Shown: positions 1 through 14,313, counted from the first letter of the stretch. The stretch: DNA of 18,253 nucleotides from Brachymonas sp. (GCA_030538335.1 JAUNUE010000014.1:1-18253); one strand, 5' to 3'. The notes: generated from the sequence alone by a model not told the origin. Program-made: numbers and translations.

Positions 1-2600
1 GTGGTGATGATCGTGCCCTTGTTTTGCAGCGTCTGTCCGGCTTGCAGGCTGACATTGCCCGGTGCCTGGATGGTGCTGACTACGGCATCATGGGTTTCGG
101 TGTGGTTCTCGGTCTTGGCACCACCCGCCTGCACGCCGATGAACAAGCCATTGAGCCCGGCGCTGATGAAGGGGCCGCCGTTGCTCAACTGGGTGTTGTT
201 GTCGCTGCTGCTGGATTTGCTGTCGCCTGCCGCCACCGTCACATTGGGCGCCGTGATGGTCACTGGCCCGGAACTGGCGGCAATCTGGCTGCCCTTGAGG
301 GCTACCGCGTTGCCGCCCTGGATGTTGACCGTGCTGCCGCTGAGGCTGTTGGCCGTGGCCAGGCCGCTGCTCTGCCCGGTCGTCGTGGTGACACCTTGCA
401 GGTTCAGGCCGGCGGTGTATTGCAGCGCGCTGCCGTTTTGCGAAGCGTAACCGGCAAACCCGAGCGTGTAGTTCTGCTTGGTGCTGCCCGTTTGCGCATC
501 TGCAATGTCGGTGGTCACGGCATTGGCAGCGTTCAGGTTGAGCGCCTGGCCTGCGGAGACGGCGCTGCCTGCCGCGCCTACATTGTTGCCACTGAGTGTG
601 ATGGCGCTCTGCGAGGTGACGCTGGAGCCCACGGTAGTGTCAGCCGAGGTGGTGGTGGCATCGCTGGCATCGGTAATGTTGAAAGCCGCGCCGTGGCGGT
701 TGCCGCTGGTGCCCGAGGTGTTGTTGAATGCATATCCCAGCTTCACATCGCCATCGGACGAAGCCAGCTGCACGCCGTTGGTGCCGTTGATGGCACTGGC
801 AGTCACGCTGACGCCGCCATTACCGTTGACGGCGACGTGCTGCCCCTGAATGCTGCTGCCATGCTGCGTGATGCTGGTGGTGCTGTTGTGGTGGTTCTCA
901 CCACCTGCAATACCACCTGCATTGAGAAAATCCACGCTGTTGGTTGACGTGTTCTGGCTGGTCTGGCTGCCGATGCTGGTAGTGCCCTGACTGGTCAGGG
1001 CCACCTGCTGGCCGCTCACCTGAGTGCCTTGCAGGGCCACGTTACCGCCGCTGCTGCCAATGGCCACATTACCGCCCGCCTGCAGGCTGGTGCCGGTGAA
1101 ATTCTGTTGGCTGCTGGCCGTCACGTTGCGGCCAGTTTGCAGCGCATTACCCTGGGCGACATAGTTGACGGTGTTGCTGCTGCTGTTTTGCGCTACGGCG
1201 CCCGACAGGTTCACTGCCTGGCTGCCACTGACAGACAGGTCGCCGCCCGCGCTAACCGAGGCTGCCTGCGCATTGACGGCCCCGCTGGTGGCCTTGATGT
1301 TTGCATCTTGCGCCACCTGCCAGTTGTTGCCATACAGGTTCTGTGTCTGTTGTGTGGTGTGGTTCTTGTTGTTCCATGCGAACCGTGATTGCTCTACCGT
1401 GCTGCCGCTGGTGCTATTGGTCGTGGTGCTGCCAAGCTGCACGGTACCACCCGACACATGCAGGTTCTGCGCCTTGATCTGCACCGCATTGAGCGTATTG
1501 CTGCCGGCAGCCGACAGATCCACTTGATTGCCGCTGATCTGCGTGGCGCTGAAAGCCTCGTCGTGACTGGTGTTGGAAGTTTTGGAGCTCACCATCGAAG
1601 CGAAGTTGTAGGAAGAGTTGCCGGTGCTGCTGTCGCGGGACTGGATCTGGCCCTGTACGTCCAGATTGTTCGCCGCCAAGGCCACATCACCGCCCTTGAT
1701 CTGGCTGGCTGTTACTTTCAGATTTCCGGCGGTGTTGACATCGACCAGACTGGTACCGTTGAGGCTGCCCTGTACCGAAGTGGTGGCTGTGGCATCCGTA
1801 TTGTGAATACGGATGGCCCCAGCGTACATGCTGCCCAGGATGGCGCCATCGAGCACCGCAGTCGTTACGCCCTGGGGAGCCGCCTGTTCCGCCGCGCTTA
1901 ACGGCGTAGTGGCCAGAGACCCGTCTGCGCGCACATGCTGGCGCCCCGACTTGACATTAATAGCGCTGTTGGCACTGACATTGCCGTTTACGTTGACACG
2001 CGGCGCAATCAGGTTGAGGACGTCTGCGCCGCCCACATGGCCTGTCACATTCAGCGCGTTGCTATTGCCGTTGGCGCCGACCTGATAGCTTGAAAGTGCG
2101 CCATTGCTGAGTTCGGGCTTGCCCACCACCAGGGAAGCCGAGGGCGTATTGATAAAGCCGCAGCCGTTGCAGGTGATGCCGTTGGGGTTGGCCAGCACCA
2201 GGTTGGCAGCCATGCCAAAAACCTCCTGCTTGCCCAGCAGCAGCGAAGGGTTGTTGCTTACCACTTCGTTCAAGATCACATTGGCCGACTGACCGCGCAG
2301 GTTGGCATTGGCCCCTAGCTGCCCTGCCAATTGCGAGGTACCGGCAACGGTGGCATTGTTCAGCACCGCGCCCTGTGTCGGCACGTTGTAATTGCTGTAC
2401 TGGTTGTAGGACAAGCCCTGTGCATTGGGCGCCACGATGTTCACCACGGGCACGCCATTCTTGCTGCTTACCGAGGTTGCGCCCACAGGCGTGATGCTTT
2501 GCGCCATAAGGGGCTGCGCCGCTACCAACGACAGGCCGATCAGCGCTGCCAGTCGCCCTTTGCTGGAAAGTTTCCAGCGCCTTGTGTTTTCACGTTTCAT
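1..2600 (-). CDS. TpsA-family secreted exoprotein (filamentous haemagglutinin / ShlA / CdiA-like), N-terminal ~866 aa only; the C-terminus lies beyond the window start
   Basis: Minus-strand translation from the ATG at 2600 gives MKRENTRRWKLSSKGRLAALIGLSLVAAQPLMAQS..., a Sec signal with a long n-region. A TPS secretion domain follows, with the hallmark motifs ...SANVILNEVVSNNPSLLLGKQEVFGMAANLVLANPNGITCNGCGFINT... (NPNL/NPNG-type). The rest is long Gly/Asn/Ser/Thr/Ala/Val-rich beta-helical repeats with no stop before position 1. AAGGAG sits 6 nt upstream of the ATG (revcomp of 2607-2612). It is absent from the ORF track only because it has no in-window stop. The plus-strand ORFs in 1-2600 are mirror artefacts. 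Confidence 0.82.
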   Translation of the reverse strand, partial: MKRENTRRWKLSSKGRLAALIGLSLVAAQPLMAQSITPVGATSVSSKNGVPVVNIVAPNAQGLSYNQYSNYNVPTQGAVLNNATVAGTSQLAGQLGANANLRGQSANVILNEVVSNNPSLLLGKQEVFGMAANLVLANPNGITCNGCGFINTPSASLVVGKPELSNGALSSYQVGANGNSNALNVTGHVGGADVLNLIAPRVNVNGNVSANSAINVKSGRQHVRADGSLATTPLSAAEQAAPQGVTTAVLDGAILGSMYAGAIRIHNTDATATTSVQGSLNGTSLVDVNTAGNLKVTASQIKGGDVALAANNLDVQGQIQSRDSSTGNSSYNFASMVSSKTSNTSHDEAFSATQISGNQVDLSAAGSNTLNAVQIKAQNLHVSGGTVQLGSTTTNSTSGSTVEQSRFAWNNKNHTTQQTQNLYGNNWQVAQDANIKATSGAVNAQAASVSAGGDLSVSGSQAVNLSGAVAQNSSSNTVNYVAQGNALQTGRNVTASSQQNFTGTSLQAGGNVAIGSSGGNVALQGTQVSGQQVALTSQGTTSIGSQTSQNTSTNSVDFLNAGGIAGGENHHNSTTSITQHGSSIQGQHVAVNGNGGVSVTASAINGTNGVQLASSDGDVKLGYAFNNTSGTSGNRHGAAFNITDASDATTTSADTTVGSSVTSQSAITLSGNNVGAAGSAVSAGQALNLNAANAVTTDIADAQTGSTKQNYTLGFAGYASQNGSALQYTAGLNLQGVTTTTGQSSGLATANSLSGSTVNIQGGNAVALKGSQIAASSGPVTITAPNVTVAAGDSKSSSSDNNTQLSNGGPFISAGLNGLFIGVQAGGAKTENHTETHDAVVSTIQAPGNVSLQAGQTLQNKGTIIT

Positions 2601-2691: not shown

Positions 2692-4407
2692 TCAGAATGT
2701 CCAGGTCACGCTTGCCGTCAGGCTGTTGCGCGTTTGCCTGGCCACCAGCAGGCGTGCGCGCGCCAGTTCCAGATCAGCCGCCAGATTGCGGTATTTCAGG
2801 CCGAATCCGGCGCTGCCGCTCACCACACGCTCGGTGCTGGCACTGGAGGCCGTGCTGCTGCGCACCACGCCCGCGTCCAGGCCGATGCGGGGCTGCACCG
2901 TCCAGTTGCCTACAGCCCATGTCGTGGCCAAAGTGTTGCGCACGGCCCAGCCGCGATCACCCGACACATTGGTATCAGCCAGTCCGCGCACCAGTGTGCG
3001 GTCAGACAGCAGCATCTGCTCGACCCCGTACAAGGGCTGACGAGCATGCTGCGCCACCAGTTGATGCTGGTGGCTCCAGTTCTTGTCCAGCGCCTGGAAC
3101 TGTCCGTTCCAGCTCGCCGTGAACAGCACCTTGTCAAAAGCCGCATGTGGGTAAGCGGCAAACAGGGATGCAGGCATATTGCCCTGCGCTTGTTCGCGCA
3201 GCCCCTTCTGCCATTCCAGCCCCCACTGCGCTACGCCCGCTTCAAACAGGCGGGTGTGTGAAAGCCCGAGTTGTGATTTGAGAATGCTTGGGCTCTGGAT
3301 GGCCAGTTCAGTGCCCATAAAGGTATTGCGCACATCCGACTTGGCCAGTTGCAGGTACAGCGAAGTAATGTGGCGTGCGCTGCGGCTGACTACGCGGTCG
3401 GCGCGCACCGCGTATTGCCGCATACTGCCCGCCAGCTCTGCGTTGACGCCCTGCAGGGGCTGCTGCGCCTTGTACGCCGAGGCGCTGGCCATTGCGCTGA
3501 AATTCCAGTAGCCATATGGCACGGCATACAGCAACGTGGCACCGTGGCTTTTCTGCTGACTGGTTCCAGGCCACGTGGAATTGGCCGACACCCACAAGCT
3601 GTCAGATAAACCCAGCGGGCTGTTCACCGACAAGGTACCGCGCACCACCCCGCGACCGGTACTGGAAGATCCCGTGTTATCCAGACTGATGGAACCATGC
3701 ACTACGCCTGCGTCTCGGCTCGTTAGCCGCACCTCAACGGCATCCGACCCTTGCGGATAGACATCGGCCTGCACCTGCAGACCCGGCAGGCGCCGAGTCT
3801 GATCCAGCGCCTGATCCAGATCCTGCATGTTGAGCCAGCCTTGCCCCCGCTGCGGAAACAGGGTGCTTGGGTTGACTTGCCGTGTCTGGCCCGTTACTTT
3901 GGCAATGCGCACAGGTTCCACCACCAGCTCCAGCTGCTGGGGCAGCCAGAGCGGCCGAATGGCAATGCGGGGATAGCCACGCCGGACAAACGCCGCCGTA
4001 ATCGCTTGCGTCAAGGCATCAACCTGCCCCTGCGACACACAGGGCGGTATCATGCGCCTGATCTCCATTTGCTCAGGTAGCGCTAACAGATCCAGCCCCG
4101 AAACATGCACCGAACGGGAGTCCGTACACTGTTGCACGGTTGCGGGCGCAGGCACGGCGTGCTGCTCACGATCTGGCGCAGTGGCGGTGCTGCCCCGCTC
4201 ATCATGCATGCCCTCCATCTTGCGAAGCAACAGATTCTTCCGCTCTTGGGCGCGCAGCATATCGGTTTGCTGCAGACCGTTGACATCGCTGCGTGCTGCC
4301 GAAGGCGGCATTACCTGCTGCGCCTGAATCGCATGGCAGGCGGCAACTCCTGAAACACAAAAAACGACCGTTCGTGCAAATTTCGTGACAAAAAAAGGAC
4401 GTATCAC
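2692..4407 (-). CDS. TpsB / ShlB / FhaC-family outer-membrane two-partner-secretion transporter (POTRA + 16-strand beta-barrel)
   Basis: The 627-aa minus ORF shows the typical ShlB/FhaC family signature (...NTGSSSTGRGVVRGTLSVNSPLGLSDSLWVSANSTW..., POTRA-like N-region). The start is placed at GTG (complement of 4405-4407), giving MIRPFFVTKFARTVVFCVSGVAACHA|IQAQQ: a basic n-region, a hydrophobic core and AxA-type cleavage. The longer ORF to 4575 would put 56 non-signal residues in front of the signal peptide. No good SD precedes the GTG, so the start is uncertain. Confidence 0.8.
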   Translation of the reverse strand: MIRPFFVTKFARTVVFCVSGVAACHAIQAQQVMPPSAARSDVNGLQQTDMLRAQERKNLLLRKMEGMHDERGSTATAPDREQHAVPAPATVQQCTDSRSVHVSGLDLLALPEQMEIRRMIPPCVSQGQVDALTQAITAAFVRRGYPRIAIRPLWLPQQLELVVEPVRIAKVTGQTRQVNPSTLFPQRGQGWLNMQDLDQALDQTRRLPGLQVQADVYPQGSDAVEVRLTSRDAGVVHGSISLDNTGSSSTGRGVVRGTLSVNSPLGLSDSLWVSANSTWPGTSQQKSHGATLLYAVPYGYWNFSAMASASAYKAQQPLQGVNAELAGSMRQYAVRADRVVSRSARHITSLYLQLAKSDVRNTFMGTELAIQSPSILKSQLGLSHTRLFEAGVAQWGLEWQKGLREQAQGNMPASLFAAYPHAAFDKVLFTASWNGQFQALDKNWSHQHQLVAQHARQPLYGVEQMLLSDRTLVRGLADTNVSGDRGWAVRNTLATTWAVGNWTVQPRIGLDAGVVRSSTASSASTERVVSGSAGFGLKYRNLAADLELARARLLVARQTRNSLTASVTWTF

Positions 4408-4825
4408 TGCGAAATATCGAAAACTGTGGGAAAAGTCGCATTTTTTTCTTATCTTGTGTAAATTTGATGAAATGCCGTGGTGATTCTTTACCTGATTTCC
4501 TTCAGGGAGTTCCCGTTCGCTTCCCGATTGCGGGCATTTTGTCGCGCTCCTTTCCGGGCAGCATCCGTATCGCATCGGGCTTTGATGACATCAAACGCCA
4601 AGTGACTGAACTGCTGGTGTATGAGGTGCAGGTAAGGGCAGAACATTGAACGCTGCGCCATCGCTGGCCTTTTCTTGCGTGAAGTTGCTGGCAGGGTCGT
4701 TGCCGAGCGGCGGGGCGGGCACGCAGTGGCAAAATGGTGCCGATTCAGGTGGTGGCAGGGCTGGCCATTCTGGAGCAACAGAACAATCCGCACTGACCGT
4801 GCAGCATTCTCTCGCGAGGCCCACG

Positions 4826-7800
4826 ATGCGCAAGATCAACTCCATCCTCATCGCCAACCGTTCTGAAATTGCCATCCGCGTGATGCGCGCTGCATCCGAG
4901 ATGCACATCCGTACCGTGGGCATTTACGCTGCGCAAGACCGGCTGGCGCTGCACCGCTTCAAGGCCGACGAGAGCTATCTGGTGGGCGAGGGCAAGCGCC
5001 CGCTGGAGGCGTATCTCGACATCCACGACATTTTGCGGATTGCCCACGATGCCAGGGTCGATGCCATCCACCCCGGTTACGGTTTCCTCGCCGAAAACCC
5101 CGATTTTGCACAGGCCGTGATCGACTCGAACATGCTGTGGGTTGGCCCCCGGCCCGAGGTGATGCGCACGCTGGGCAACAAGGTCTCGGCGCGCGAAGCG
5201 GCTGTGGCCGCGGGCGTGCCGGTGGTGCCCGCCAGCCCGCCCTTGCCCTACGATGTGGAAGGCTGCCTGGCTGCTGCGCGCGCCATCGGCTACCCGGTCA
5301 TGCTCAAGGCCTCGTGGGGCGGCGGTGGCCGTGGCATGCGTGTGATCGAGAACGATGCCGAATTGCCTGCCGCCATCGAAGCTGCACGCCGCGAAGCCAA
5401 GGCCGCGTTTGGCAACGACGAGTTGTATTTTGAAAAACTGGTGCGCCGCGCGCGCCATGTGGAGGTGCAGATCCTGGGCGACCTGCACGACCAGGCCGTG
5501 CATCTGTACGAGCGCGATTGCACGGTGCAACGGCGCAACCAGAAGGTGGTGGAGCGCGCCCCCGCGCCCTACCTCAGCAACGCGCAGCGCACCGAGCTGT
5601 GCCAGAGCGCCTTGCAACTGATGCAGGCAGTGGGCTACAGCCACGCGGGCACGGTCGAATTTTTGATGGACGTGGACACGGGCCGGTTCTACTTCATGGA
5701 GGTCAACCCGCGCATTCAGGTGGAGCACACCGTGACCGAGGAAGTCACGGGCATCGACATCGTCAAGGCGCAGATCCGCATCAGCGAAGGCGCGCACATC
5801 GGCCAGCTTGAAGACGCGGTGGATGCCCAGGGTCAGGTGCTGCGCCGCGCCTCGGGCGTGCCTGCGCAGGCTGACATTCAGCTCAAGGGCCATGCGCTGC
5901 AATGCCGCATCACCACCGAAGACCCGGCCAACAATTTCTTGCCCGACTACGGGCGGCTCTCGGCTTACCGCAGCGCGGCTGGTTTTGGCGTGCGGCTCGA
6001 TGGTGGCACGGCTTATGGCGGCGCGGTGATCACGCCGTATTACGACTCGCTGCTGGTCAAGGTTACCACCTGGGCGCCGACACCGAAGGAAGCGATCGAC
6101 CGCATGTGGCGCTCGCTGCGCGAGTTCCGCATCCGTGGCGTGGCGTCGAACCTGCCGTTTCTGGAAAACCTCATCACCCACCCGGCATTTGCCACAGGTG
6201 AGTTGACCACGCGCTTCATCGACGAAAACCCCGAGCTGATGCACACCGCCACGCGCCGCGACCGCGCTACGCGCCTGCTGCGCTATGTGGCCGACGTGAG
6301 CGTGCACGGCCACCCCGAGATGAAGGGCCGCACGCTGCCCGCGCTGCCGCTGTCCAAACCGGTGTTGCCCAAGATCGGGCTGGATACCAACACCAGTTGC
6401 GCCATGCCCGGCACGCGCGACCGCTTGCGTGAACTGGGGCCACAGGGCTTTGCGCAATGGATGCGCGCGCAAAAACAGGTTCTGCTCACCGACACCTCCA
6501 TGCGCGATGCGCACCAGTCGCTGTTTGCCACGCGCATGCGCACGGCAGACATGCTGCCCATCGCGCCGTATTACGCCTACGAATTGCGGGAGTTGTTTTC
6601 GCTCGAATGCTGGGGCGGCGCGACCTTTGACGTGGCCCTGCGCTTTTTGAAAGAGGACCCGTGGGCGCGCCTGGCGCAACTGCGCGAACGCATCCCCAAC
6701 ATCCTGTTCCAGATGCTGCTGCGCGGCTCCAACGCGGTGGGCTACACCAACTACGCCGACAATGTGGTGCGCCATTTCGTGCAGCAGGCAGCAGGTGCGG
6801 GCATCGACCTGTTCCGCGTGTTCGACTCGCTCAACTGGGTCGAGAACATGCGCGTGGCGATGGACGCCGTGATCGAGGCCGGTGCGCTGTGCGAAGGCAG
6901 CGTGTGCTACACCGCCGACCTGTTTGACGAATCGCGACCCAAATACGGCCTGAAATACTACGTCGGCATTGCCAAGCAGTTGCAGGCGGCGGGCGCGCAC
7001 ATCATTGGCCTCAAAGACATGGCGGGCGTCTGCAAGCCACGCTCGGCAGCGGCACTGGTCAAGGCGCTGAAAGAAGAAACCGGGCTGCCCGTGCACTTCC
7101 ACACGCACGATACCTCGGGCATTGCAGCCTCCTCCGTACTCGCTGCGGTAGAGGCCGGTTGCGATGCGGTCGATGGTGCCATGGGCGCCTTGAGTGGCCT
7201 GACTTCACAGCCCAACCTCGCGAGCATTGCCGCCGCGCTGGAAGGCACCGAGCGCGACCCCGGCGTGCCGCTGTCGGCCATGCACGAAGCCAGCATGTAC
7301 TGGGAGGGCGTGCGCCGCTACTACGCACCGTTCGAGAGCGAATTCCGCGCCGGCACCGCCGATGTGTACCGCCACGAAATGCCCGGTGGCCAATACACCA
7401 ACTTGCGCGAACAGGCGCGCGCGCTGCGGCTGGAACACCGCTGGACCGAAGTCTCGCAAGCCTACGCCGACGTGAACAAATTGTTTGGCGACATCGTCAA
7501 GGTCACGCCCACCTCCAAGGTCGTGGGCGACCTGGCGCTGCTCATGGTGGCCAACGACCTCACCGCTGCAGACGTGGCCAACCCCGACCGCGAAATACCT
7601 TTTCCTGAATCGGTGGTGTCGCTGTTCAAGGGCGAGCTGGGCTTTCCGCCCGATGGCTTTCCCGAAGCGTTGTCGCGCAAGGTGCTCAAGGCCGACCCGC
7701 CCGCGCCCTACCGCCCTGGCGAGCGCATTGCGCCTGTTGATCTGGAAGCCACACGTGCCGAAGCCGAAGCGCTGTGCAACGCCAAACTCGACGACCGGCA

Positions 7801-8344
7801 ACTGGCCTCGTACCTGATGTACCCCAAGGTCACGCAAAACTACTTCGAGCATTACAACAACTACGGCGACACTTCGGTGCTGCCCACGCCCGCCTTTTTC
7901 TACGGCCTGCGCCAGCAGCAAGACGAAATCGCCGTGAGTATTGACGCGGGCAAAACCCTGCTCATCAGCCTGCAATCGGTGCAGCCCGATCACGAAGCGC
8001 AGGAACACAAGGTGCAGTTTGAACTCAACGGCCAGTCGCGCATGGTGCACGTGCCCATGCGCAGCGTCGAAGGAGAGGGCAAGGCCCGCAGCGCCCAGAA
8101 GCGTCCCAAGGCCGAAACCGGCAACATCCAGCACCTGGCCGCGCCCATGGCCGGTACCATCGTCACCGTCGCTGTCAAACCGGGGCAAAAGGTCAAGGCG
8201 GGCGACCCCATCCTCGCCGTGGAAGCCATGAAAATGGAAACCCACCTCAGCGCCGAACGCGACGCCGAAGTCGAGCAGGTGCTGGTGCAGGCCGGCGACC
8301 AGATCGACGCCAAGGATTTGCTGGTGGTGTTCAAGGCGTTATGA
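4826..8344 (+). CDS. pyc: pyruvate carboxylase (biotin carboxylase + carboxyltransferase + biotinyl domains), 1172 aa
   Basis: The N-terminus MRKINSILIANRSEIAIRVMRAA matches the biotin-carboxylase start. Carboxyltransferase motifs are present (ECWGGATFDVALRFLKEDPWARL, HFHTHDTSGIA). A C-terminal biotinyl domain carries the AMKMETH biotinylation motif. GAGG lies 7-10 nt upstream of the ATG at 4826. The in-frame upstream extension to 4646 has no stop but no homology. Confidence 0.92.
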   Translation: MRKINSILIANRSEIAIRVMRAASEMHIRTVGIYAAQDRLALHRFKADESYLVGEGKRPLEAYLDIHDILRIAHDARVDAIHPGYGFLAENPDFAQAVIDSNMLWVGPRPEVMRTLGNKVSAREAAVAAGVPVVPASPPLPYDVEGCLAAARAIGYPVMLKASWGGGGRGMRVIENDAELPAAIEAARREAKAAFGNDELYFEKLVRRARHVEVQILGDLHDQAVHLYERDCTVQRRNQKVVERAPAPYLSNAQRTELCQSALQLMQAVGYSHAGTVEFLMDVDTGRFYFMEVNPRIQVEHTVTEEVTGIDIVKAQIRISEGAHIGQLEDAVDAQGQVLRRASGVPAQADIQLKGHALQCRITTEDPANNFLPDYGRLSAYRSAAGFGVRLDGGTAYGGAVITPYYDSLLVKVTTWAPTPKEAIDRMWRSLREFRIRGVASNLPFLENLITHPAFATGELTTRFIDENPELMHTATRRDRATRLLRYVADVSVHGHPEMKGRTLPALPLSKPVLPKIGLDTNTSCAMPGTRDRLRELGPQGFAQWMRAQKQVLLTDTSMRDAHQSLFATRMRTADMLPIAPYYAYELRELFSLECWGGATFDVALRFLKEDPWARLAQLRERIPNILFQMLLRGSNAVGYTNYADNVVRHFVQQAAGAGIDLFRVFDSLNWVENMRVAMDAVIEAGALCEGSVCYTADLFDESRPKYGLKYYVGIAKQLQAAGAHIIGLKDMAGVCKPRSAAALVKALKEETGLPVHFHTHDTSGIAASSVLAAVEAGCDAVDGAMGALSGLTSQPNLASIAAALEGTERDPGVPLSAMHEASMYWEGVRRYYAPFESEFRAGTADVYRHEMPGGQYTNLREQARALRLEHRWTEVSQAYADVNKLFGDIVKVTPTSKVVGDLALLMVANDLTAADVANPDREIPFPESVVSLFKGELGFPPDGFPEALSRKVLKADPPAPYRPGERIAPVDLEATRAEAEALCNAKLDDRQLASYLMYPKVTQNYFEHYNNYGDTSVLPTPAFFYGLRQQQDEIAVSIDAGKTLLISLQSVQPDHEAQEHKVQFELNGQSRMVHVPMRSVEGEGKARSAQKRPKAETGNIQHLAAPMAGTIVTVAVKPGQKVKAGDPILAVEAMKMETHLSAERDAEVEQVLVQAGDQIDAKDLLVVFKAL

Positions 8345-8744: not shown

Positions 8745-9968
8745 TCAGCCTTTCACGCACACCACCTGCTTCAGGGTGTACACCACCTCCACCAGATCAG
8801 CCTGTGCGGCCATGACGGCGTCGATGTCCTTGTAGGCCATCGGTATTTCGTCAATCACGCCTGCGTCCTTGCGGCATTCCACGCCTTCGGTGGCGCGCAT
8901 CTGGTCGGCCACGGTGTAGCGCTTTTTGGCGGCGGTGCGGCTCATCACGCGACCGGCGCCGTGTGAGCAGCTTTCGAACGACTCGGGGTTGCCCTTGCCG
9001 CGCACGATGTAGCTGCGCGCACCCATGCTGCCGGGGATGATGCCCAGCTCGCCCGCCTTGGCGCTCACCGCGCCCTTGCGCGTGACAAATACCTCTTCAC
9101 CAAAGTGCGTTTCGCGCTGCACGTAGTTGTGGTGGCAGTTCACCGCTTCTACATGCGTTTCAAAAGGCTTGGTGATCACGCTGCGCAGGGCGGCGATCAC
9201 GCGCTGCATCATCACGGCGCGGTTGGCGGCGGCAAACTTCTGTGCCCAGCCCACGGCCTGCACGTAATCGCCAAAGTACTGGCTGCCTTCTTCAAAGTAG
9301 GCCAGATCCTTGTCGGGCAGGTGCACGTTGTTGCGCTCGGCGTCTTTTTTGGCCAGTTCGATGAACTGGGTGCCAATGGCGTTGCCCACGCCACGCGAGC
9401 CGCTGTGCAGCATGACCCACACCGCCTGCGCTTCATCCAGACAAACCTCAATGAAGTGGTTGCCGGTGCCCAGCGTGCCCATGTGGCGGTAGTTGTTGGT
9501 GTTTTTCAGACGCGGGTATTTTTCGCAAATCTGCGCAAACTCATCGACTAGCTTGGACCAGGCCGCATCCGCCTCGGTGGGCGGTTGCTCCCACGAACCC
9601 TTGTCGCGCCCGGTTCTGCGCGGCGTCAGCCCGTGCGGCACGGCCTTTTCAATGGCCACGCGCAACAGAGCCAGGTTGTCGGGCAGGTCGCGGGCAGTCA
9701 GCGTGGTCTTGCACGCCATCATGCCGCAGCCAATGTCCACCCCCACCGCTGCGGGGATGATGGCCTTGAACGTGGGAATGACCGAACCCACCGTGGCCCC
9801 GATGCCGTAGTGCACATCGGGCATGGCGGCCACGTGCTTGAAGACGATGGGCAGGCGCGCCACGTTCTCCAGTTGTTTCTGCGCTTCGGCCTCTACAGGT
9901 ACCCCGCGTGTCCACATCTTGATCGGCACGGCGTTTTCTGCGTCTTTTTGAATGTAGTTTTTGTCCAT
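8745..9968 (-). CDS. rtcB: RNA-splicing ligase RtcB (3'-phosphate/5'-OH RNA ligase), 407 aa
   Basis: MDKNYIQKDAENAVPIKMWTRGVPVEA...MPDVHYGIGATVGSVIPT...NCHHNYV...CSHGAGRVMSR...QVVCVKG is near-colinear with E. coli RtcB, including the metal and GMP-His motifs. The start is chosen at the ATG at 9968 (MDKNY), which matches the family N-terminus. The ORF-track extension MQMPDGCFIKRII runs through a hairpin. Confidence 0.93.
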   Translation of the reverse strand: MDKNYIQKDAENAVPIKMWTRGVPVEAEAQKQLENVARLPIVFKHVAAMPDVHYGIGATVGSVIPTFKAIIPAAVGVDIGCGMMACKTTLTARDLPDNLALLRVAIEKAVPHGLTPRRTGRDKGSWEQPPTEADAAWSKLVDEFAQICEKYPRLKNTNNYRHMGTLGTGNHFIEVCLDEAQAVWVMLHSGSRGVGNAIGTQFIELAKKDAERNNVHLPDKDLAYFEEGSQYFGDYVQAVGWAQKFAAANRAVMMQRVIAALRSVITKPFETHVEAVNCHHNYVQRETHFGEEVFVTRKGAVSAKAGELGIIPGSMGARSYIVRGKGNPESFESCSHGAGRVMSRTAAKKRYTVADQMRATEGVECRKDAGVIDEIPMAYKDIDAVMAAQADLVEVVYTLKQVVCVKG

Positions 9969-9981
9969 GATGATTCTCTTT

Positions 9982-10019
9982 ATAAAACAACCGTCAGGCA
10001 TCTGCATGCCTGACGGTTG
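9982..10019 (-). terminator. Perfect 14-bp hairpin (CAACCGUCAGGCAU-GCAG-AUGCCUGACGGUUG) followed by UUUUAUAAAG, between the SPFH stop and the rtcB start
   Basis: The stem, 9988-10001 / 10006-10019, begins 7 nt after the SPFH stop. The U-tract and the rtcB SD/start follow within 14 nt. This is a terminator or attenuator-like structure inside an apparent operon. Confidence 0.5.
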
Positions 10020-10026
10020 AAAGGCC

Positions 10027-11163
10027 TCAACGCAGCTTCACCAGCCCGTTGAGCACTTGGTCCAAGCCACCGAATACGGAGATCTTGTCGATGCGCTCGG
10101 CCACGCGCTCCAGTGTTTCAAGCTCCTTCAGACGCAGGGCGATGGGGTTGTCTTCCATCACCTTGGCGGTGTTGAGCAAGGAGCGCGAGGCCGCGGTTTC
10201 TTCGCGGCGGCGGATCACGTTAGCCTGCGCGGCTTTTTCGGCTTCGACCACCTGGGCGAGGATGGTTTTCATCTCGCCCGGCAGCACGATGTCTTTCACG
10301 CCCACGCCGTCAAGCGCCAAGCCATAGCTGGCGAGTTTGCCTTTGACCCAGGTTGTGACGACTTCGTCGATCACGCCCTTGTTCTCCAGCAACTCGTCCA
10401 GTGTGCGGGTACCAACGGCAGCACGCAAGCCAAACTGCAGCTCGCGGTAGAGGTGCTCAGCCGGTTTTTGTAATTGCGTAAAAGCCTTGAGCACGTCGAT
10501 GTAGCGCCAGTTGGCGGCCAGGTTCAGGCGCAAAGCGACCTTGTCGCGGGTCAGGATTTCCTGGCCCGACACTTCCAGCGTTTGCAGGCGCATGTCGACC
10601 AGCTCCACCACCACGTTGCGGTTGAACTTCCAGAAGGCGTAGTTACCCGGTGCTAGCAAGCGCTCGACCTTGCCGTCGATCCACAGCACACCGGTGCCAT
10701 GCTCTGACACCTGTACCGCGAGCACACCTGACAGACCAGCCAACGGGCGTTGGCGCAACTGGGTTTGCGTCAGACGCTGCAGCAAGGCGGCAGGCACTTC
10801 GGCCGAAGTGCTGATGTCGATCACTTCCACGCGCACATCAACCAGCCCTTTCCAGTACAGGCGGCGGGTGGATGGCGCCATGATCTCAACCAGCAAGCCG
10901 TTTTCATAGCGCAAACCCACCTGGGTTTCGCTGAGATCGACGCGCACAAACTCCTGGTTGACAACCTCAGGCTCCTTGGCCATCAGGTAATCGGCCAGTT
11001 CGTGCGTGAAAGCGGTTTGCTCCAGTGCAAAGGTCTGTACCTTCAGGCGGTCAAACCCGCTGAACAGCCAGTGGCGACCTGGCTTGAGCACGCGCTCAAA
11101 ATCGCCATTGCGCAGCAACAGGCCACGCTCGTTTTTTTTCACAGTCACACGCTTGAATTTCAT
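10027..11163 (-). CDS. SPFH / band-7 (stomatin-prohibitin-flotillin-HflKC) domain protein, 378 aa, with a tandem duplication of the SPFH N-terminal beta-subdomain and no N-terminal TM helix
   Basis: The C-terminal half (...LEVSGQEILTRDKVALRLNLAANWRYIDVLKAF...DIVLPGEMKTILAQVVEAEKAAQANVIRRREETAASRSLLNTAKVMEDNPIALRLKELETLERVAE...) is a classic slipin/SPFH core plus coiled-coil. Residues ~4-45 (KRVTVKKNERGLLLRNGDFERVLKPGRHWLF) and ~170-215 (GVLWIDGKVERLLAPGNYAFWKFNRNVV) both resemble the SPFH N-terminal strand region. The start is the ATG at 11163, preceded by AAGGAG at 7-nt spacing. Confidence 0.8.
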   Translation of the reverse strand: MKFKRVTVKKNERGLLLRNGDFERVLKPGRHWLFSGFDRLKVQTFALEQTAFTHELADYLMAKEPEVVNQEFVRVDLSETQVGLRYENGLLVEIMAPSTRRLYWKGLVDVRVEVIDISTSAEVPAALLQRLTQTQLRQRPLAGLSGVLAVQVSEHGTGVLWIDGKVERLLAPGNYAFWKFNRNVVVELVDMRLQTLEVSGQEILTRDKVALRLNLAANWRYIDVLKAFTQLQKPAEHLYRELQFGLRAAVGTRTLDELLENKGVIDEVVTTWVKGKLASYGLALDGVGVKDIVLPGEMKTILAQVVEAEKAAQANVIRRREETAASRSLLNTAKVMEDNPIALRLKELETLERVAERIDKISVFGGLDQVLNGLVKLR

Positions 11164-11458
11164 GATGATTCTCCTTGTTGTTGCGTGCAGATAAAGGGTG
11201 CCGTTACAGGGGTGGTGGCGGATTGCCCGTGCTGCCGGATGGGCCTTGTGGCGGGCAGTGCCACGTACAGCCGCATCAAGTGCATGCTGTGCGCGCATTG
11301 CTGGTCACAGGCGCAGCCGGTGCGGGCGGACAATGCAAGCCGCCACCGCTGACAGGCCCTGCCTGCCCGCGCCTTCTGCACACGCAGCCAGGGCCTTGTG
11401 AACAGAATTTGCGGGCATGCACAGCCTGCGTTCGGCGGGGTGGTCTTTCGACCGTTCT

Positions 11459-11535
11459 TGGCTTATGGAGCCGGATTCGAACCGGCGACAGACGAAAGGT
11501 TGATTCGTTGCTCTACCAAACTGAGCCATCCATAA
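11459..11535 (-). tRNA. tRNA-like gene t1 (77 nt). Perfect cloverleaf (7-bp acceptor UUAUGGA/UCCAUAA, D, anticodon and T arms all fully paired, encoded CCA) but anticodon loop UCAACCU has C33 and nominal anticodon AAC; isotype undetermined
   Basis: Minus strand reads TTATGGA-TG-GCTC-AGTTTGGTA-GAGC-A-ACGAA-TCAACCT-TTCGT-CTGTC-GCCGG-TTCGAAT-CCGGC-TCCATAA-G-CCA. Confidence 0.6.
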
Positions 11536-11536
11536 A

Positions 11537-11564
11537 TGGTCGACGTTTCAGGACTCGAACCTGA
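11537..11564 (-). other. tRNA 3'-half fragment (T arm UCAGG-UUCGAGU-CCUGA + acceptor 3' strand AACGUCG + A + CCA), 2 nt from the t1 5' end; no matching 5' acceptor/D arm upstream
   Basis: Minus strand reads GGTGTCAGGTTCGAGTCCTGAAACGTCGACCA. The required 5' strand CGRCGTT is not found within 100 nt upstream. The upstream 170 nt contain GC-rich hairpins instead. Confidence 0.45.
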
Positions 11565-11737
11565 CACCTTGCGGTGCAACCGATGAACATCGCTATCAAC
11601 TGCTTTCAGCAACGCGGCATGTGCAAGCCGCACTGGCCCCATGCCAGCAGCCGCACACCGACGGGGCGGGCTTGCGCCCCAACCCCTGCTCTGTCAGCGT
11701 TTGCTTGCCACAGAAGATTTGTTGGGCGCCTGAAAAT

Positions 11738-12301
11738 TCAATTCAGGCGCGAATTTTTGGGCAGCCTCGCGGCCAGCCACTCGTGCACATCTGCGCGGAT
11801 GTTGCGCCCCTTGAGCAGAAAATCCTCAAAGCGGCTTGGCACATAGTGCAGGTACAGCAAGGGCATGCGCGCTTCGTCGGGCGTGCGTGCGGCCTTGCGC
11901 CCATTGCACCCGGCACAGGCAGCAACAAGGTTCATCCAGCACCAGGCGCCACCGCGCGACTCGGGCAGGATGTGCTCGCACTGCAAATCCTGCGCGGCAA
12001 ACACATCACCGCAATAGGCACAGGTATGCCGGTCGCGGCGCAGCAGCTTGTCTTTGGTCACGCTGGGGGTCACATCAAACAGATTGCACTTGGCCGCGCC
12101 GCGCACGGCGATGATGGGGTGCACTTCAAGCACTGAATCGCGCTGGAGTGGAACGTTGAAACCCCCACGCAGCACGGCCAGCGGGCCCTGGCCCAATTGC
12201 CAGGCCACACGATCCGTGGCGTAGTGCAGGGCGGCCTGTTCCACCGCAATCCAGGCCTGCGGTGTACCGTGCACATCAAGTTGCAAGACCTGGGTAAACA
12301 T
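11738..12301 (-). CDS. HNH-family nuclease, 187 aa
   Basis: C-terminal HNH/zinc-finger motif ...HTCAYCGDVFAAQDLQCEHILPESRGGAWCWMNLVAACAGCNGRKAARTPDEARMP... with high GC3. AAGGAG lies 6 nt upstream of the ATG at 12301. The start is 36 nt downstream of tRNA-like gene t3. The stop codon sits in the loop of a 9-bp hairpin (11726-11750). Confidence 0.8.
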   Translation of the reverse strand: MFTQVLQLDVHGTPQAWIAVEQAALHYATDRVAWQLGQGPLAVLRGGFNVPLQRDSVLEVHPIIAVRGAAKCNLFDVTPSVTKDKLLRRDRHTCAYCGDVFAAQDLQCEHILPESRGGAWCWMNLVAACAGCNGRKAARTPDEARMPLLYLHYVPSRFEDFLLKGRNIRADVHEWLAARLPKNSRLN

Positions 12302-12336: not shown

Positions 12337-12412
12337 TGGTGCGGGCATGTCCGGCTGAACGCCAAACCTGCCGGTTAAAAGCCGGACGCTCTACCAGTTG
12401 AGCTATACCCGC
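12337..12412 (-). tRNA. tRNA-Lys(UUU)-like t3 (76 nt) with a degenerate T arm (2 of 5 stem pairs mismatched; T loop UUCAGCC lacks A58 and C61); possible pseudo-tRNA
   Basis: GCGGGTA-TA-GCTC-AACTGGTA-GAGC-G-TCCGG-CTTTTAA-CCGGC-AGGTT-TGGCG-TTCAGCC-GGACA-TGCCCGC-A-CCA. The acceptor, D and anticodon arms are good; the 27:43 pair is a U-C mismatch. Confidence 0.55.
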
Positions 12413-12432
12413 AAAATATGACAAAAGCAATT

Positions 12433-12507
12433 GGGGGTGACTGCTGGGAATCGAACCCAAATCGCTGGAATCACAAACCAGGGTCCTGCCATTGAACGAC
12501 AGCCACC
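12433..12507 (-). tRNA. tRNA-His(GUG), with G-1:C73 and an 8-bp acceptor
   Basis: G(-1)-GTGGCTG-TC-GTTC-AATGGCA-GGAC-C-CTGGT-TTGTGAT-TCCAG-CGAT-TTGGG-TTCGATT-CCCAG-CAGTCAC-C. The anticodon arm is near-identical to E. coli tRNA-His. The 31:39 pair is U-U. The 3' tail is CCC rather than CCA. Confidence 0.8.
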
Positions 12508-12528
12508 CCGAATGGCTTTTGTCTGAAC

Positions 12529-12604
12529 TGGCTGCATCGACAGGCCTCGAACCTGTGACATCCGCGTTAACAGCGCGGTGCTCTACCCACTGAGCTACGA
12601 TGCA
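12529..12604 (-). tRNA. tRNA-Asn(GUU)
   Basis: TGCATCG-TA-GCTC-AGTGGGTA-GAGC-A-CCGCG-CTGTTAA-CGCGG-ATGTC-ACAGG-TTCGAGG-CCTGT-CGATGCA-G-CCA. Canonical cloverleaf with a U1-A72 first pair. Confidence 0.85.
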
Positions 12605-12609
12605 AAAAT

Positions 12610-12692
12610 TGGTGCCTCAGCCGGGATTCGAACCCAGAAAAGCCCTGCTTCTAAGGCAGGCAGGTGTACCAATTTCCATTAGCCACCGAGGC
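12610..12692 (-). tRNA. tRNA-like t6 with anticodon UAG (Leu-type), 83 nt. It has no class-II long variable arm, and ~6 extra nt between the D region and the anticodon stem (tandem CCTGCC CTGCC)
   Basis: GCCTCGG-TG-[GCTAATGGAAATTGGTACACCTG]-CCTGC-CTTAGAA-GCAGG-GCTTTT-CTGGG-TTCGAAT-CCCGG-CTGAGGC-A-CCA. The acceptor, anticodon and T arms pair well. The D region is 23 nt instead of ≤20. Confidence 0.5.
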
Positions 12693-12697
12693 ACAAC

Positions 12698-12773
12698 TGG
12701 CACACCGTACCGGATTCGAACCGGTGGCTTTCCACTAGACAGGCGGACACTCTGACCACTGAGTTAACGGCGC
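12698..12773 (-). tRNA. tRNA-Asp(GUC); U37 rather than a purine 3' of the anticodon
   Basis: GCGCCGT-TA-ACTC-AGTGGTCA-GAGT-G-TCCGC-CTGTCTA-GTGGA-AAGCC-ACCGG-TTCGAAT-CCGGT-ACGGTGT-G-CCA. Two G-U pairs in the acceptor stem. Confidence 0.8.
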
Positions 12774-12782
12774 AAAAAAATC

Positions 12783-12857
12783 TGGTCGTCCAAGGTGGGT
12801 ACGATCCACCGATCAACGCCTTATGAGAGCGCTGCTCTACCGCTGAGCTATTGGACG
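12783..12857 (-). tRNA. tRNA-Met(CAU)-type t8 with an atypical T loop AUCGUAC (A54 and U58 swapped relative to the canonical T54/A58) and a C1-G72 first pair
   Basis: CGTCCAA-TA-GCTC-AGCGGTA-GAGC-A-GCGCT-CTCATAA-GGCGT-TGATC-GGTGG-ATCGTAC-CCACC-TTGGACG-A-CCA. Confidence 0.65.
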
Positions 12858-12866
12858 TTGTGTACT

Positions 12867-12942
12867 TGGCATCCCAGGAAGAATTCGAACCCTCAACCTT
12901 CGGATTTGGAGTCCGTTGCGCTGCCGATTGCGCCACTGAGAT
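12867..12942 (-). tRNA. tRNA-Trp(CCA) (A1-U72 as in E. coli tRNA-Trp; G53-U61 and A27/A43 irregularities)
   Basis: ATCTCAG-TG-GCGC-AATCGGCA-GCGC-A-ACGGA-CTCCAAA-TCCGA-AGGTT-GAGGG-TTCGAAT-TCTTC-CTGGGAT-G-CCA. Confidence 0.75.
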
Positions 12943-12959
12943 AAATCCATGCTTTTTTC

Positions 12960-13036
12960 TGGTTGCAGCGGGTGGATTTGAACCACCGATCTCAGGCGTA
13001 TGAAACCTGTGAGGACAACCACTCCTCTACGCTGCT
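12960..13036 (-). tRNA. tRNA-Met(CAU), initiator-like t10 (mismatched 1:72 pair A/A, A11:U24, T loop UUCAAAU, discriminator A as in tRNA-fMet; only two G-C pairs at the base of the anticodon stem)
   Basis: AGCAGCG-TA-GAGG-AGTGGTTGT-CCTC-A-CAGGT-TTCATAC-GCCTG-AGATC-GGTGG-TTCAAAT-CCACC-CGCTGCA-A-CCA. Confidence 0.7.
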
Positions 13037-13507: not shown

Positions 13508-13539
13508 AAAAAAGCCCGGTTTCCTTGCAGAAACCGGGC
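13508..13539 (-). terminator. Intrinsic terminator on the minus strand (10-bp stem GCCCGGUUUC/GAAACCGGGC, 6-nt loop, then U6)
   Basis: Plus strand reads aaaaaa-gcccggtttc-cttgca-gaaaccgggc. It is 30 nt downstream of the stop of the small minus-strand ORF at 13570-13809. Confidence 0.55.
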
Positions 13540-13569
13540 CTCTAGATACAGAGAAGTCGAGAGTAACGC

Positions 13570-13809
13570 TCAGCTGTGCGTACCCTCCCCGGTTGCGCGG
13601 CAATCCTCATGCTTGAACGATGTCCAGCCCCCATTGCACGCAGGCGCCATGAGCCGATAGCCCGCCAACGCGCGCGCAGCCAAGCCCATGCCGGGTTGCG
13701 GTATGCGGTTGATGGAAGCGCTCAGTCGTATCACGGATGATCTCGATGCAAAAAGGTTGAACATGGGAATACTTGCAAAGGTAAAGGAGGCTGCAGGCAG
13801 CTCCTTCAC
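13570..13809 (-). CDS. Hypothetical small protein (79 aa, GTG start), divergent from the HTH regulator gene and followed by a terminator
   Basis: The ORF ends 30 nt before a strong terminator and starts ~110 bp from the divergent HTH gene. It has no recognisable domain. GC3 is intermediate and lower than host genes. Weak call. Confidence 0.2.
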   Translation of the reverse strand: MKELPAASFTFASIPMFNLFASRSSVIRLSASINRIPQPGMGLAARALAGYRLMAPACNGGWTSFKHEDCRATGEGTHS

Positions 13810-13828
13810 TTCTGGAACAAGATGTAGT

Positions 13829-13843
13829 GTAAAGAAACTTTAC
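13829..13843. promoter_or_regulatory. 15-bp palindrome GTAAAGAAACTTTAC (6-3-6) in the AT-rich divergent promoter region; candidate operator for the adjacent HTH protein
   Basis: Located 78 bp upstream of the HTH gene start, in the most AT-rich stretch of the window (13740-13880). Confidence 0.3.
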
Positions 13844-13920
13844 TGTTCTTTCAAGATTCGGCGATAATCTTTTTTGCAAGCGTTGCTTCAACAACACACA
13901 CGCCAAAACATCTTCTGCCC

Positions 13921-14313
13921 ATGCCCCAGCCCGCACCGCCACAACAACCCAACCTGTCTGTACTGCGCCGACAGAACCTGCTGGCGCTGCTGCAGGAGTT
14001 TGCCGAAAACATGGTTTCGGCAGGCGCGGTCACCAAAGGCATCGAGCAGGCTTTTGCCGAAAAAATCCAGGTCTCGCCCAGCATGCTCAGCCAGATGAAG
14101 GCAGGCCGCCCCATCGGCAACAAGATCGCGCGGCAAATCGAAGTCTTGTGCAAACGCCCTGCGGGCTGGCTGGATACACAGCACCCCGACCAGAAACCTT
14201 CGCCCGCTGAAGAAGCCTTTGTGACGCTTGCCAGAGAGGTATGGCGGTCGCAAAACGCCAAAGGAAAAAGGGAACTGCAGCAATATGTGCAGTCCCGCAT
14301 GGCGAAACCCTGA
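13921..14313 (+). CDS. XRE/Cro-CI-type helix-turn-helix DNA-binding protein (130 aa), phage-repressor-like
   Basis: HTH signature ...GIEQAFAEKIQVSPSMLSQMKAGRPIGNKIARQIEVLCKRPAGWLD... with host-like GC3. The N-terminal 30 residues are Pro/Gln-rich. An alternative start is the ATG at 14011 (MVSAGAV...). Confidence 0.65.
   Translation: MPQPAPPQQPNLSVLRRQNLLALLQEFAENMVSAGAVTKGIEQAFAEKIQVSPSMLSQMKAGRPIGNKIARQIEVLCKRPAGWLDTQHPDQKPSPAEEAFVTLAREVWRSQNAKGKRELQQYVQSRMAKP

Follow-up and report, generated by a model that had tools for sequence, protein, structure and literature searches.

A tRNA-like element with a variable anticodon loop upstream of a slipin-RtcB module in Brachymonas sp., a probable tRNA mimic of the predicted b7a-tRNA class

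The slipin-RtcB cassette and the fold of element 2

The stretch of DNA analysed here (18,253 nucleotides (nt) from Brachymonas sp., GCA_030538335.1 JAUNUE010000014.1:1-18253; hereafter the window) carries a tRNA-like element of 77 nt at positions 11459-11535, upstream of a slipin gene. This element (element 2) is encoded on the minus strand and is read from 11535 to 11459, the strand having been left unstated in the earlier note that drew attention to it. The minus-strand order is ispH, serS and tRNA-Ser(cga), an array of eight tRNA genes (12337-13036), a gene encoding an HNH endonuclease of 187 amino acids (aa) (11738-12301; Pfam HNH_5/HNH), two tRNA-like elements in tandem (element 1, 11537-11592, followed by element 2), a gene encoding a slipin family protein of 378 aa (Band-7/SPFH, stomatin-like; 10027-11163; Pfam Band_7, 1.7e-28) and, directly after it, the gene for the RNA ligase RtcB (8745-10007; Pfam RtcB, 3.4e-131). 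Element 2 lies 296 nt upstream of the slipin gene on the same strand. The slipin is identical to a database entry annotated 'slipin family protein [Brachymonas sp.]', and its true start at 11163 is 45 codons inside a 423-aa open reading frame (ORF). It lacks an N-terminal membrane segment and matches, in its C-terminal half, stomatins whose PDB entries each hold 16 chains; its relatives in Burkholderiales number in the thousands at ~83% identity.

Element 2 was called as tRNA-Val(aac) by ARAGORN, and its match to the Rfam tRNA family RF00005 reached 51.5 bits (gathering score, 29; E = 1.1e-8 over the whole window). Its sequence, by structural part, is UUAUGGA UG GCUC AGUUUGGUA GAGC A ACGAA UCAACCU UUCGU CUGUC GCCGG UUCGAAU CCGGC UCCAUAA G CCA. 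Direct reading bore out the description of a perfectly folded tRNA given in the earlier note: all 21 stem pairs (7+4+5+5) are Watson-Crick, G73 and CCA are encoded in the genome, and the T loop is UUCGAAU. The conserved nucleotides of the tRNA tertiary core are likewise present in the cloverleaf (U8, A14, G15-C48, G18G19, A21, G53-C61, U54U55C56, A58). The anticodon loop (U32 C33 A34 A35 C36 C37 U38) departs from two near-universal rules of decoding tRNAs, U33 and a purine at position 37, and has A34 in addition; C33 and the nominal anticodon AAC had been pointed out before, and the pyrimidine C37 is a further oddity that had not been stressed. The base calls of both C33 and C37 come from a single contig of a metagenome-assembled genome. 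The cloverleaf is both the minimum free energy (MFE) and the centroid structure, and none of the suboptimal folds within 3 kcal/mol, 25 in all, changes the loop beyond opening its closing pair. A 7-nt loop combining U33 with a purine at 37, the refolding that the earlier note had set against its own reading, appears in none of these 25 folds. The thermodynamic z-score of element 2 is modest (-1.84), and it is the comparison with homologues that provides strong evidence for a real, selected structure.

Conservation of the body and variation of the anticodon loop

Homologous loci (numbered with the prefix L) were gathered by exact protein look-up, by a scan of species-representative genomes, whose 33 loci ranged from Burkholderiales to cyanobacteria and Calidithermus, and by a pattern scan of metagenomes. 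Culturable carriers among them are Vogesella mureinivorans 389, Polaromonas sp. CF318 and Calidithermus chliarophilus DSM 9957. A covariance model was built from 23 copies of element 2 called by ARAGORN, and the homologue set comprised 45 copies that differ in sequence and occupy the same position in Burkholderiales, other proteobacteria, cyanobacteria and Calidithermus. Of the 42 first-sample loci with upstream sequence, 39 have, according to the covariance model, a high-scoring homologue of element 2 on the strand of slipin and upstream of it; two more of these loci hold degenerate versions that keep two T arms, and all the loci added later also have a homologue. This arrangement was found in Burkholderiales, Neisseriales, Rhodospirillales, Competibacteraceae, gammaproteobacteria, cyanobacteria and Calidithermus, and the cassette made up of array, HNH gene, tRNA-like pair, slipin and RtcB recurs in differing chromosomal neighbourhoods. 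About half of the loci have RtcB inside the fetched flank, and the element 2 RNA accompanies slipin even where that flank holds no RtcB gene. In Nostocales the tRNA-like pair is ~1 kb from slipin, with sequence intervening. The family covariance model R1 scores element 2 of the window at 77.6 bits, a value that is not independent, the window sequence having been part of the seed; the 51.5 bits of the Rfam match are independent.

The cloverleaf was tested on a MAFFT alignment that had not been fitted to any structure. Its pairs were formed in 90.8% of cells, compared to 68.2% in shuffles, with 113 double-change cells (35.6 in shuffles) and a covariation score of 0.609 (0.18 in shuffles and ~0.1 in slid controls). 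RNAalifold gave the cloverleaf independently, with a family-wide acceptor stem consisting of the inner four pairs alone. No variation was seen in the D stem or in most of the T arm, and the acceptor, anticodon and T stems covary. Among 14 Burkholderiales members, pairwise identity was high in the D arm (0.85), T arm (0.87) and variable loop (0.89), compared to 0.54 in the anticodon loop and 0.32 in an unconstrained spacer. A tRNA pseudogene was ruled out by the 21/21 Watson-Crick pairs, the covariation and the conservation across phyla, and the earlier view that the element is not a decayed pseudogene thus holds.

The 45 homologues carry 28 different anticodon-arm loops, 16 of the 45 copies having a non-canonical loop and the other 29 a canonical one with 12 different nominal anticodons; orthologues at the same locus thus have no conserved anticodon in common. 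The commonest loops are CUGAUAA (n = 11) and CUCAUAA (n = 7), and the remaining 7-nt loops were seen once each. Five 7-nt loops lack U33 (UCAACCU in the window, CCAGCAA, CACAUAA, CAGUUAA and CGCGAAA), and three loops have a pyrimidine at position 37. Nine loops are not 7 nt long (one of 3 nt, GAC; two of 4 nt, GCAA in both cases; two of 5 nt; three of 6 nt; one of 8 nt) and include UAAAC and CUUGACAA. The search for homologues with the same loop, as the earlier note had proposed, came back empty: UCAACCU is unique to the window among the 45. With 28 loops, and 16 of 45 copies non-canonical, including GNRA tetraloops and a 3-nt loop, the anticodon is not a conserved functional feature, and a constant body bearing a GNRA tetraloop as 'anticodon' in close relatives indicates that the gene is not kept as a decoder. 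Moreover, the acceptor stem spans 4-5 bp in most Burkholderiales relatives, which have no CCA, and a decoder that is to be aminoacylated is not built in this way; its 7 bp and GCCA make the window copy an exception. The pattern across the alignment suggests that selection acts on the L-shaped body (D/T elbow, T arm, inner acceptor pairs and helical anticodon stem) and not on the loop, UCAACCU being read as one among many drifted loop states. A comparison of diversifying with neutral loop evolution in close pairs involved small numbers, and the excess of loop changes over the neutral flank was statistically insecure.

The body of element 2 has 21 specified bases in common with tRNA-Phe and tRNA-Asn genes that are genuine. 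Since the pattern built on this body also fits tRNA-Phe(GAA) and tRNA-Asn(GUU) of many phyla, only 7 of the 120 matches in the metagenome scan were of the slipin-linked type. The D-arm, anticodon-stem and variable-loop sequence of the family (GGUAGAGCAACG..CGUNUGUCGC) was found identical in genuine tRNA-Phe(GAA) and tRNA-Asn(GUU) genes of many bacteria (metagenome loci L037-L156). Because of this shared body sequence, standard tools call the mimics tRNAs of the usual kind, with varying isotypes (Val, Ile, Met, Thr, Cys and others), which inflates or distorts the tRNA repertoires reported for such genomes. Phage and plasmid collections yielded no close DNA homologues of element 2, merely weak matches to generic tRNAs, and no slipin relatives were found in viral contigs.

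Element 1 ends 1 nt ahead of element 2. Direct sequence reading and comparison give it an acceptor stem (CGAUGUU/AACGUCG), a 9-nt linker, a GCAA-capped hairpin (CACC/GGUG), a T arm (UCAGG-UUCGAGU-CCUGA) and an ACCA tail, with neither a D stem nor an anticodon. Across 16 loci its acceptor is 6-7 bp long and complementary, with one mismatch in three loci, despite 14 different 5' strands; the T stem is paired at 5/5 positions in 14 loci and 4/5 in two, and an NCCA tail is found in 13 of 16 loci, 0-4 nt from the first nucleotide of element 2. The MFE structure of the isolated sequence does not yield this fold, for which the support is comparative; the model was retained because the acceptor and T stems covary. 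A T-loop element stands directly upstream of element 2 in 32 of 39 loci. Burkholderiales share the reduced form seen in the window, and distant lineages have a full cloverleaf with a 4-6-nt 'anticodon' loop. In the degenerate versions of the pair (L010, 276-352; L021, 2684-2771) the two T arms stay, and either the D arm or the 5' acceptor strand of element 2 is gone; from the sequences, the least that is conserved of the pair seems to be its T arms.

The two elements stand in a spacer of ~600 nt between the HNH and slipin genes, with further conserved blocks up to the ribosome-binding site. Immediately 5' of element 1, a conserved leader block (CACAUGCCGCG..GCUGAAAGC..GAUAG; 11593-11623, minus strand; alignment A3) includes the motif AUGCCGC, which is also present in distant loci. 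A block 3' of element 2 (11424-11456, minus strand) consists of a GNRA hairpin, GGUC-GAAA-GACC, and then CCGCCGAACGC, with invariant columns at ~405-435 of the same alignment. The motif CUGUAACGGCACC (11197-11209, minus strand), ~35 nt before the slipin start codon, is nearly invariant in nine loci and occurs once in the window. No promoter-like site was found between the HNH gene and the tRNA-like pair. In ~24 of 44 loci, element 2 is followed by a stand-alone hairpin that resembles an anticodon arm, with a 4-5-bp stem and a 7-nt loop of the form CUNNNAA (L001, 7693-7715; L002, L003, L005, L007-L009, L013-L022, L028, L038, L157-L165). It begins 0-5 nt after element 2 and keeps U33, A37 and A38 around varied triplets (GGA, GCA, GAA, GAU, ACG, GUA, CUC, UUG, UUU and others). 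It is missing in the window and in L004, L044, L149 and L166. No leader site complementary to the loop of element 2 and covarying with it, as in a T-box, was found at a consistent position; GGUUG in the linker of element 1 matches the loop in the window, without such a match in other loci.

Assignment to the b7a-tRNA class and alternative explanations

A tRNA-like RNA encoded beside Band-7 and RtcB genes, b7a-tRNA, was predicted by Burroughs & Aravind in 2016, as related in a citing preprint on the structure of the Y RNA YrlA (bioRxiv 10.1101/312249). That preprint describes b7a-tRNA as experimentally unvalidated and as a possible functional analogue of the Y RNA YrlA, and mentions occasional swaps of b7a-tRNA with Rsr versus YrlA with Band-7. 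Measured against the description in this preprint, element 2 qualifies as a tRNA-like gene adjoining a Band-7/SPFH gene, in association with RtcB and with a strong likeness to an authentic tRNA; the window copy is unlike most of its relatives in its C33/C37, its 7-bp acceptor stem and its encoded CCA. No match to a dedicated b7a-tRNA family was returned by Rfam 15 for the region of element 2. The tandem element 1, the free loop, the stand-alone hairpin and the link with array, HNH gene and putative regulator may or may not have been part of the 2016 description. As far as the accessible literature shows, the class is experimentally unexamined.

It is very probable that element 2 belongs to this class and does not decode. 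That it works in trans as a partner of slipin and RtcB, as suggested by the conserved gene neighbourhood and by analogy, is a proposition for and against which the balance is even. The reading as a whole, a non-decoding tRNA mimic of the b7a-tRNA class acting with a slipin-RtcB module of repair and translational stress, spans both of these layers and is for that reason favoured with moderate confidence. It is supported by element 1, in which a covarying acceptor stem, a T arm and NCCA persist although there is no anticodon at all, and by the presence of RtcR next to slipin-RtcB in one relative. Elements 1 and 2 would be co-transcribed with a stress-responsive tRNA-array/HNH/slipin/RtcB module and excised by the enzymes of tRNA processing, RNase P cleavage at the 5' end of element 2 placing the 3' end of element 1 at its encoded CCA or a few nt from it (in the window, one extra U would be left). 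The freed RNAs might then act in trans through their L-shaped body, together with a soluble and probably ring-forming slipin and with RtcB, when nuclease-damaged tRNA is repaired. Their role could be that of an adaptor, a scaffold or a competitive tRNA look-alike, for which the tRNA-like Y RNA YrlA, encoded with Ro60/Rsr in rsr-yrlA-rtcBA operons, would be an analogue.

Several points weigh against this reading. The b7a-tRNA is a predicted class, and the evidence on element 2 is comparative throughout. The full 7-bp acceptor stem with GCCA, atypical for the family, may mean that the window copy is charged. The predominance of CUGAUAA and CUCAUAA, and a general preference for C32, U33, A37 and A38, point to a residual constraint on loop shape, so that the loop may matter in many lineages, for instance as a mimic of an anticodon loop. 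Finally, a purely cis role in an mRNA leader would be no worse an explanation of the conserved position. If the mimic reading is correct, an apparent oddity of the genetic code becomes a well-supported example of a class predicted in 2016, and the unusual loop is one of the states open to an unconstrained loop and not a change in decoding. The comparative data show a body conserved from proteobacteria to cyanobacteria and Deinococcota in a tandem pair, often with an isolated anticodon-arm hairpin, and on this reading the anticodon loop is dispensable for the mimic's role. The range of roles that Band-7/slipin proteins could have in RNA repair in bacteria is narrowed accordingly.

The setting of tRNA damage and repair (RtcB, and RtcR in L158) would also suit a bait, decoy or sensor for anticodon nucleases, in which the tRNA shapes and the stand-alone hairpin absorb toxin RNases or are cut by them, RtcB reseals the cut RNAs or the fragments signal damage, and the diversity of the loops reflects an arms race. 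This is consistent with the hairpin that follows element 2 in over half of the loci, with its canonical loop and variable triplet, and with the odd loops of the cassette-array tRNAs: among 123 tRNAs (arrays of L001-L022, L044, L090 and L149 alongside the window), 14 lack U33 (e.g. His CCGUGAA, Lys CCUUUAA, Gly ACGCCAU, Ile CCGAUAA) and eight have a pyrimidine at 37, and the U37 loop of tRNA-Asp is kept in four loci. In the close pair L013/L016, most differences within element 2 fall in the loop. Array tRNAs have been proposed to act as 'sponges' (PMC8421152), and in Salmonella, where RtcR senses tRNA halves, YrlA's tRNA-like domain has been suggested to be a competitive inhibitor of an anticodon nuclease (PMC7790460). 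However, loops of 3-5 nt and GNRA tetraloops are no mimics of an anticodon loop, and the window copy would be a blunt bait, as the separate hairpin has been lost and neither U33 nor a purine at 37 is present in its own loop. The insecure loop-change excess, the absence of slipin relatives from viral contigs and the lack of PADLOC defence-system matches for slipin and RtcB also argue against a bait, which is considered unlikely. A fuller bait-and-sensor set, with tRNA shapes and hairpin carried in a portable cassette of array, HNH endonuclease, slipin cage and RtcB repair, is more doubtful still; were it true, cleavage of the mimics and resealing by RtcB, or competitive binding, would protect or report on the tRNA pool, the loop diversity would record an arms race with toxin RNases, and C33/C37 would be an escape or 'uncuttable inhibitor' state instead of drift. 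A purely cis-acting leader element, providing RNase P/RNase Z signals or 5' stabilisers that part the array/HNH transcript from the slipin-rtcB mRNA, or tuning expression, would account for the position of the pair within a ~600-nt leader of conserved blocks and downstream of an interval free of promoter-like sites, for the T arms as the most persistent feature even in degenerate copies, and for the loss of CCA and of the full acceptor stem in most relatives of element 2. Yet an acceptor/T-arm minihelix suffices for RNase P, and the invariant D stem, G18G19, Levitt pair and covarying anticodon stem of element 2, together with the NCCA of element 1, go beyond what a cleavage signal needs; with the ~1 kb that separates the Nostocales pair from slipin, an exclusively cis function appears rather improbable.

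A decoding role has the perfect cloverleaf, the 7-bp acceptor stem with G73-CCA, the intact tertiary core and the adjoining array, with its usable-looking members, in its favour. A35 and C36 are valine identity nucleotides, and element 2 could be conceived as a tRNA-Val(AAC), perhaps with I34, as a suppressor or frameshifter, or as a nuclease-resistant back-up. C33 and C37, however, are outside normal decoding loops, and the bacterial A34 deaminase TadA requires the U33-A34-C35-G36 context of tRNA-Arg, which is absent here. The valine discriminator is A73 in E. coli, and not G73. Many of the 28 homologue loops are unable to decode while the body and its identity-bearing positions stay constant, and UCAACCU recurs in no homologue, leaving a genuine decoder scarcely credible. 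Of the altered functions raised in the earlier note, a regulatory tRNA remains plausible, and a decoding-altered or suppressor tRNA does not agree with a family of 28 loops, 16 of 45 non-canonical. Its suggestion of nuclease resistance may hold in part, given the damage/repair module and the odd array loops, though not in the form of a resistant decoder, there being no fixed anticodon identity. Phage T5 is said to encode tRNAs whose anticodon-loop substitutions evade anticodon nucleases, reportedly work of van den Berg et al. from 2023. Such evading phage or array tRNAs resemble element 2 in being well-formed tRNAs with unusual anticodon-loop nucleotides in a setting of tRNA cleavage; they differ in keeping the cognate anticodon and decoding, varying at neighbouring loop positions, whereas the element 2 family varies both triplet and loop length on a constant body. 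The remaining explanation, a functional family whose window copy recently ceased to function when its loop mutated and the downstream hairpin was lost, draws on the unique and doubly non-canonical UCAACCU and on the missing hairpin. It is very improbable given the 21/21 Watson-Crick pairs, the intact tertiary core and an acceptor longer and better than those of the relatives, the intact ORFs for slipin, RtcB, HNH endonuclease and putative regulator, and the existence of lineages that keep the rest of the RNA with more drastic loops (GCAA, GAC).

Relation to known systems and further features of the cassette

YrlA (RF02553; rsr-yrlBA-rtcBA operons) is likewise a non-decoding tRNA mimic encoded beside RtcB and paired with a ring-shaped scaffold protein, and RNA repair or decay has been proposed for both systems. 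It differs in being one permuted domain on a Ro-binding stem, while the window has two separate, unpermuted tRNA shapes. A sub-threshold YrlA match (11479-11596, minus strand; 26.6 bits, against a gathering score of 69; E 0.002) spans the T arm of element 1 and the D arm of element 2, an order that is the same as in the permuted tRNA-like domain of YrlA and a hint that tandem tRNA mimics and Y RNAs may be linked in evolution. No Ro60/Rsr (TROVE) domain was found among the ten large minus-strand ORFs scanned in the window. Elements 1 and 2 were rejected as a Y RNA: the match is below gathering, its outer helices were flagged as non-pairing, there is no Ro-binding stem, and no Ro60 gene is nearby. 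At a permissive threshold, the Rfam families around element 2 were tRNA and this YrlA match, with Plastid-ycf2 and microRNA matches regarded as noise. An SPFH gene is also part of the rtc locus of P. aeruginosa (PMC13086221).

In Anabaena, translation inhibitors induce rtcB and a tRNA array that is otherwise silent, with co-regulated HNH endonuclease genes (PMC10272220, PMC8421152). Deletion of TrcR jointly de-represses slipin (alr0740), rtcB, HNH genes and the array (PMC10272220), and TrcR repression is relieved under translational stress (PMC8421152). The window resembles this trn operon, the L-arrays and the TrcR regulon of Anabaena PCC 7120 in having an array with an HNH endonuclease gene and rtcB nearby, along with slipin, a divergent putative regulator and an operator-like repeat. 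It differs in forming one compact cassette instead of a dispersed regulon and in the size of the array, which holds 8 genes in 700 nt; an array is defined by at least 20 tRNA genes following Tran et al. 2015, and L-arrays have up to 43. TrcR is a ribbon-helix-helix protein, and the putative regulator of the window is a weak match of HTH_3 type. The accessible literature on the Anabaena arrays and the TrcR regulon makes no mention of a tRNA-like pair before slipin. Octamers resembling the TrcR box (TGTAGTAT / ATACTACA) were seen near cyanobacterial slipin loci (L025, 2917-2934; L029, 2056 and 2894; L031/L035, 2313; L033, 1476); they fit the reported control of alr0739-alr0740 by TrcR, and their placement relative to the tRNA-like pair is not uniform.

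The array of the window, on the minus strand, was identified with ARAGORN and Rfam and encodes tRNAs for Met, Trp, Met, Asp, Lys(cuu), Asn, His and Lys(uuu), several of them atypical. Array content differs widely between close relatives. The loop CUGUCUA (U37) of tRNA-Asp(gtc) (12698-12773, minus strand) is also found in the array tRNA-Asp of L002, L005 and L044 and, being kept in four loci, represents a maintained variant and not decay. The tRNA-Lys(ctt) (12610-12692, minus strand) is 83 nt long, with an irregular D region and the loop GCCUUAG (Rfam, 35.5 bits); the tRNA-Lys(ttt) (12337-12412, minus strand) has a poor T stem and is below the Rfam gathering score, and the tRNA-Met at 12960-13036 has an A1-A72 mismatch. 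The HNH protein, encoded on the minus strand between the array and the tRNA-like pair, has a weak PtuB-like HNH motif, and an HNH gene was found at the equivalent position in L001-L006, L044, L149, L154, L157 and L160-L168.

Upstream of the array, a conserved segment (13510-13854, minus strand) consists of a promoter-like site, TTGAAA-17-TACACT (13854 to 13826), and a leader of ~300 nt, for which no Rfam match was obtained. The site overlaps an inverted repeat (GTAAAG..CTTTAC) and faces the divergent gene of a small protein, a putative regulator of the module (13921-14313, plus strand; weak Pfam HTH_3 match, E 0.012, below cut-off), which is 49% identical to a 125-aa gene product at the equivalent position in L001. 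The leader ends in a strong, conserved intrinsic terminator (13543 to 13510) before the first array tRNA, and could be an attenuator or a separate small RNA.

Some cassettes depart from this layout. In L158, the gene of the sigma-54 activator RtcR (784-2388, minus strand) replaces the array/HNH side, next to slipin-RtcB. An optional gene of ~340 aa with a faint SDH_protease match (L003, 9197-10225; L160, 1422-2441; L161; L166-L168) is located in the interval between the HNH gene and the RNA pair or in that between slipin and RtcB. Downstream of RtcB in the window (2692-8245, minus strand) are ORFs of 346 aa and 787 aa without a family match and a ShlB/FhaC-type transporter of two-partner secretion, none of which belongs to the cassette in other genomes; no homology was detected between the 346-aa ORF and the optional module gene of L003 (339-342 aa). 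A TTG-initiated ORF of 1232 aa that overlaps them on the opposite strand (4646-8344) is probably spurious.

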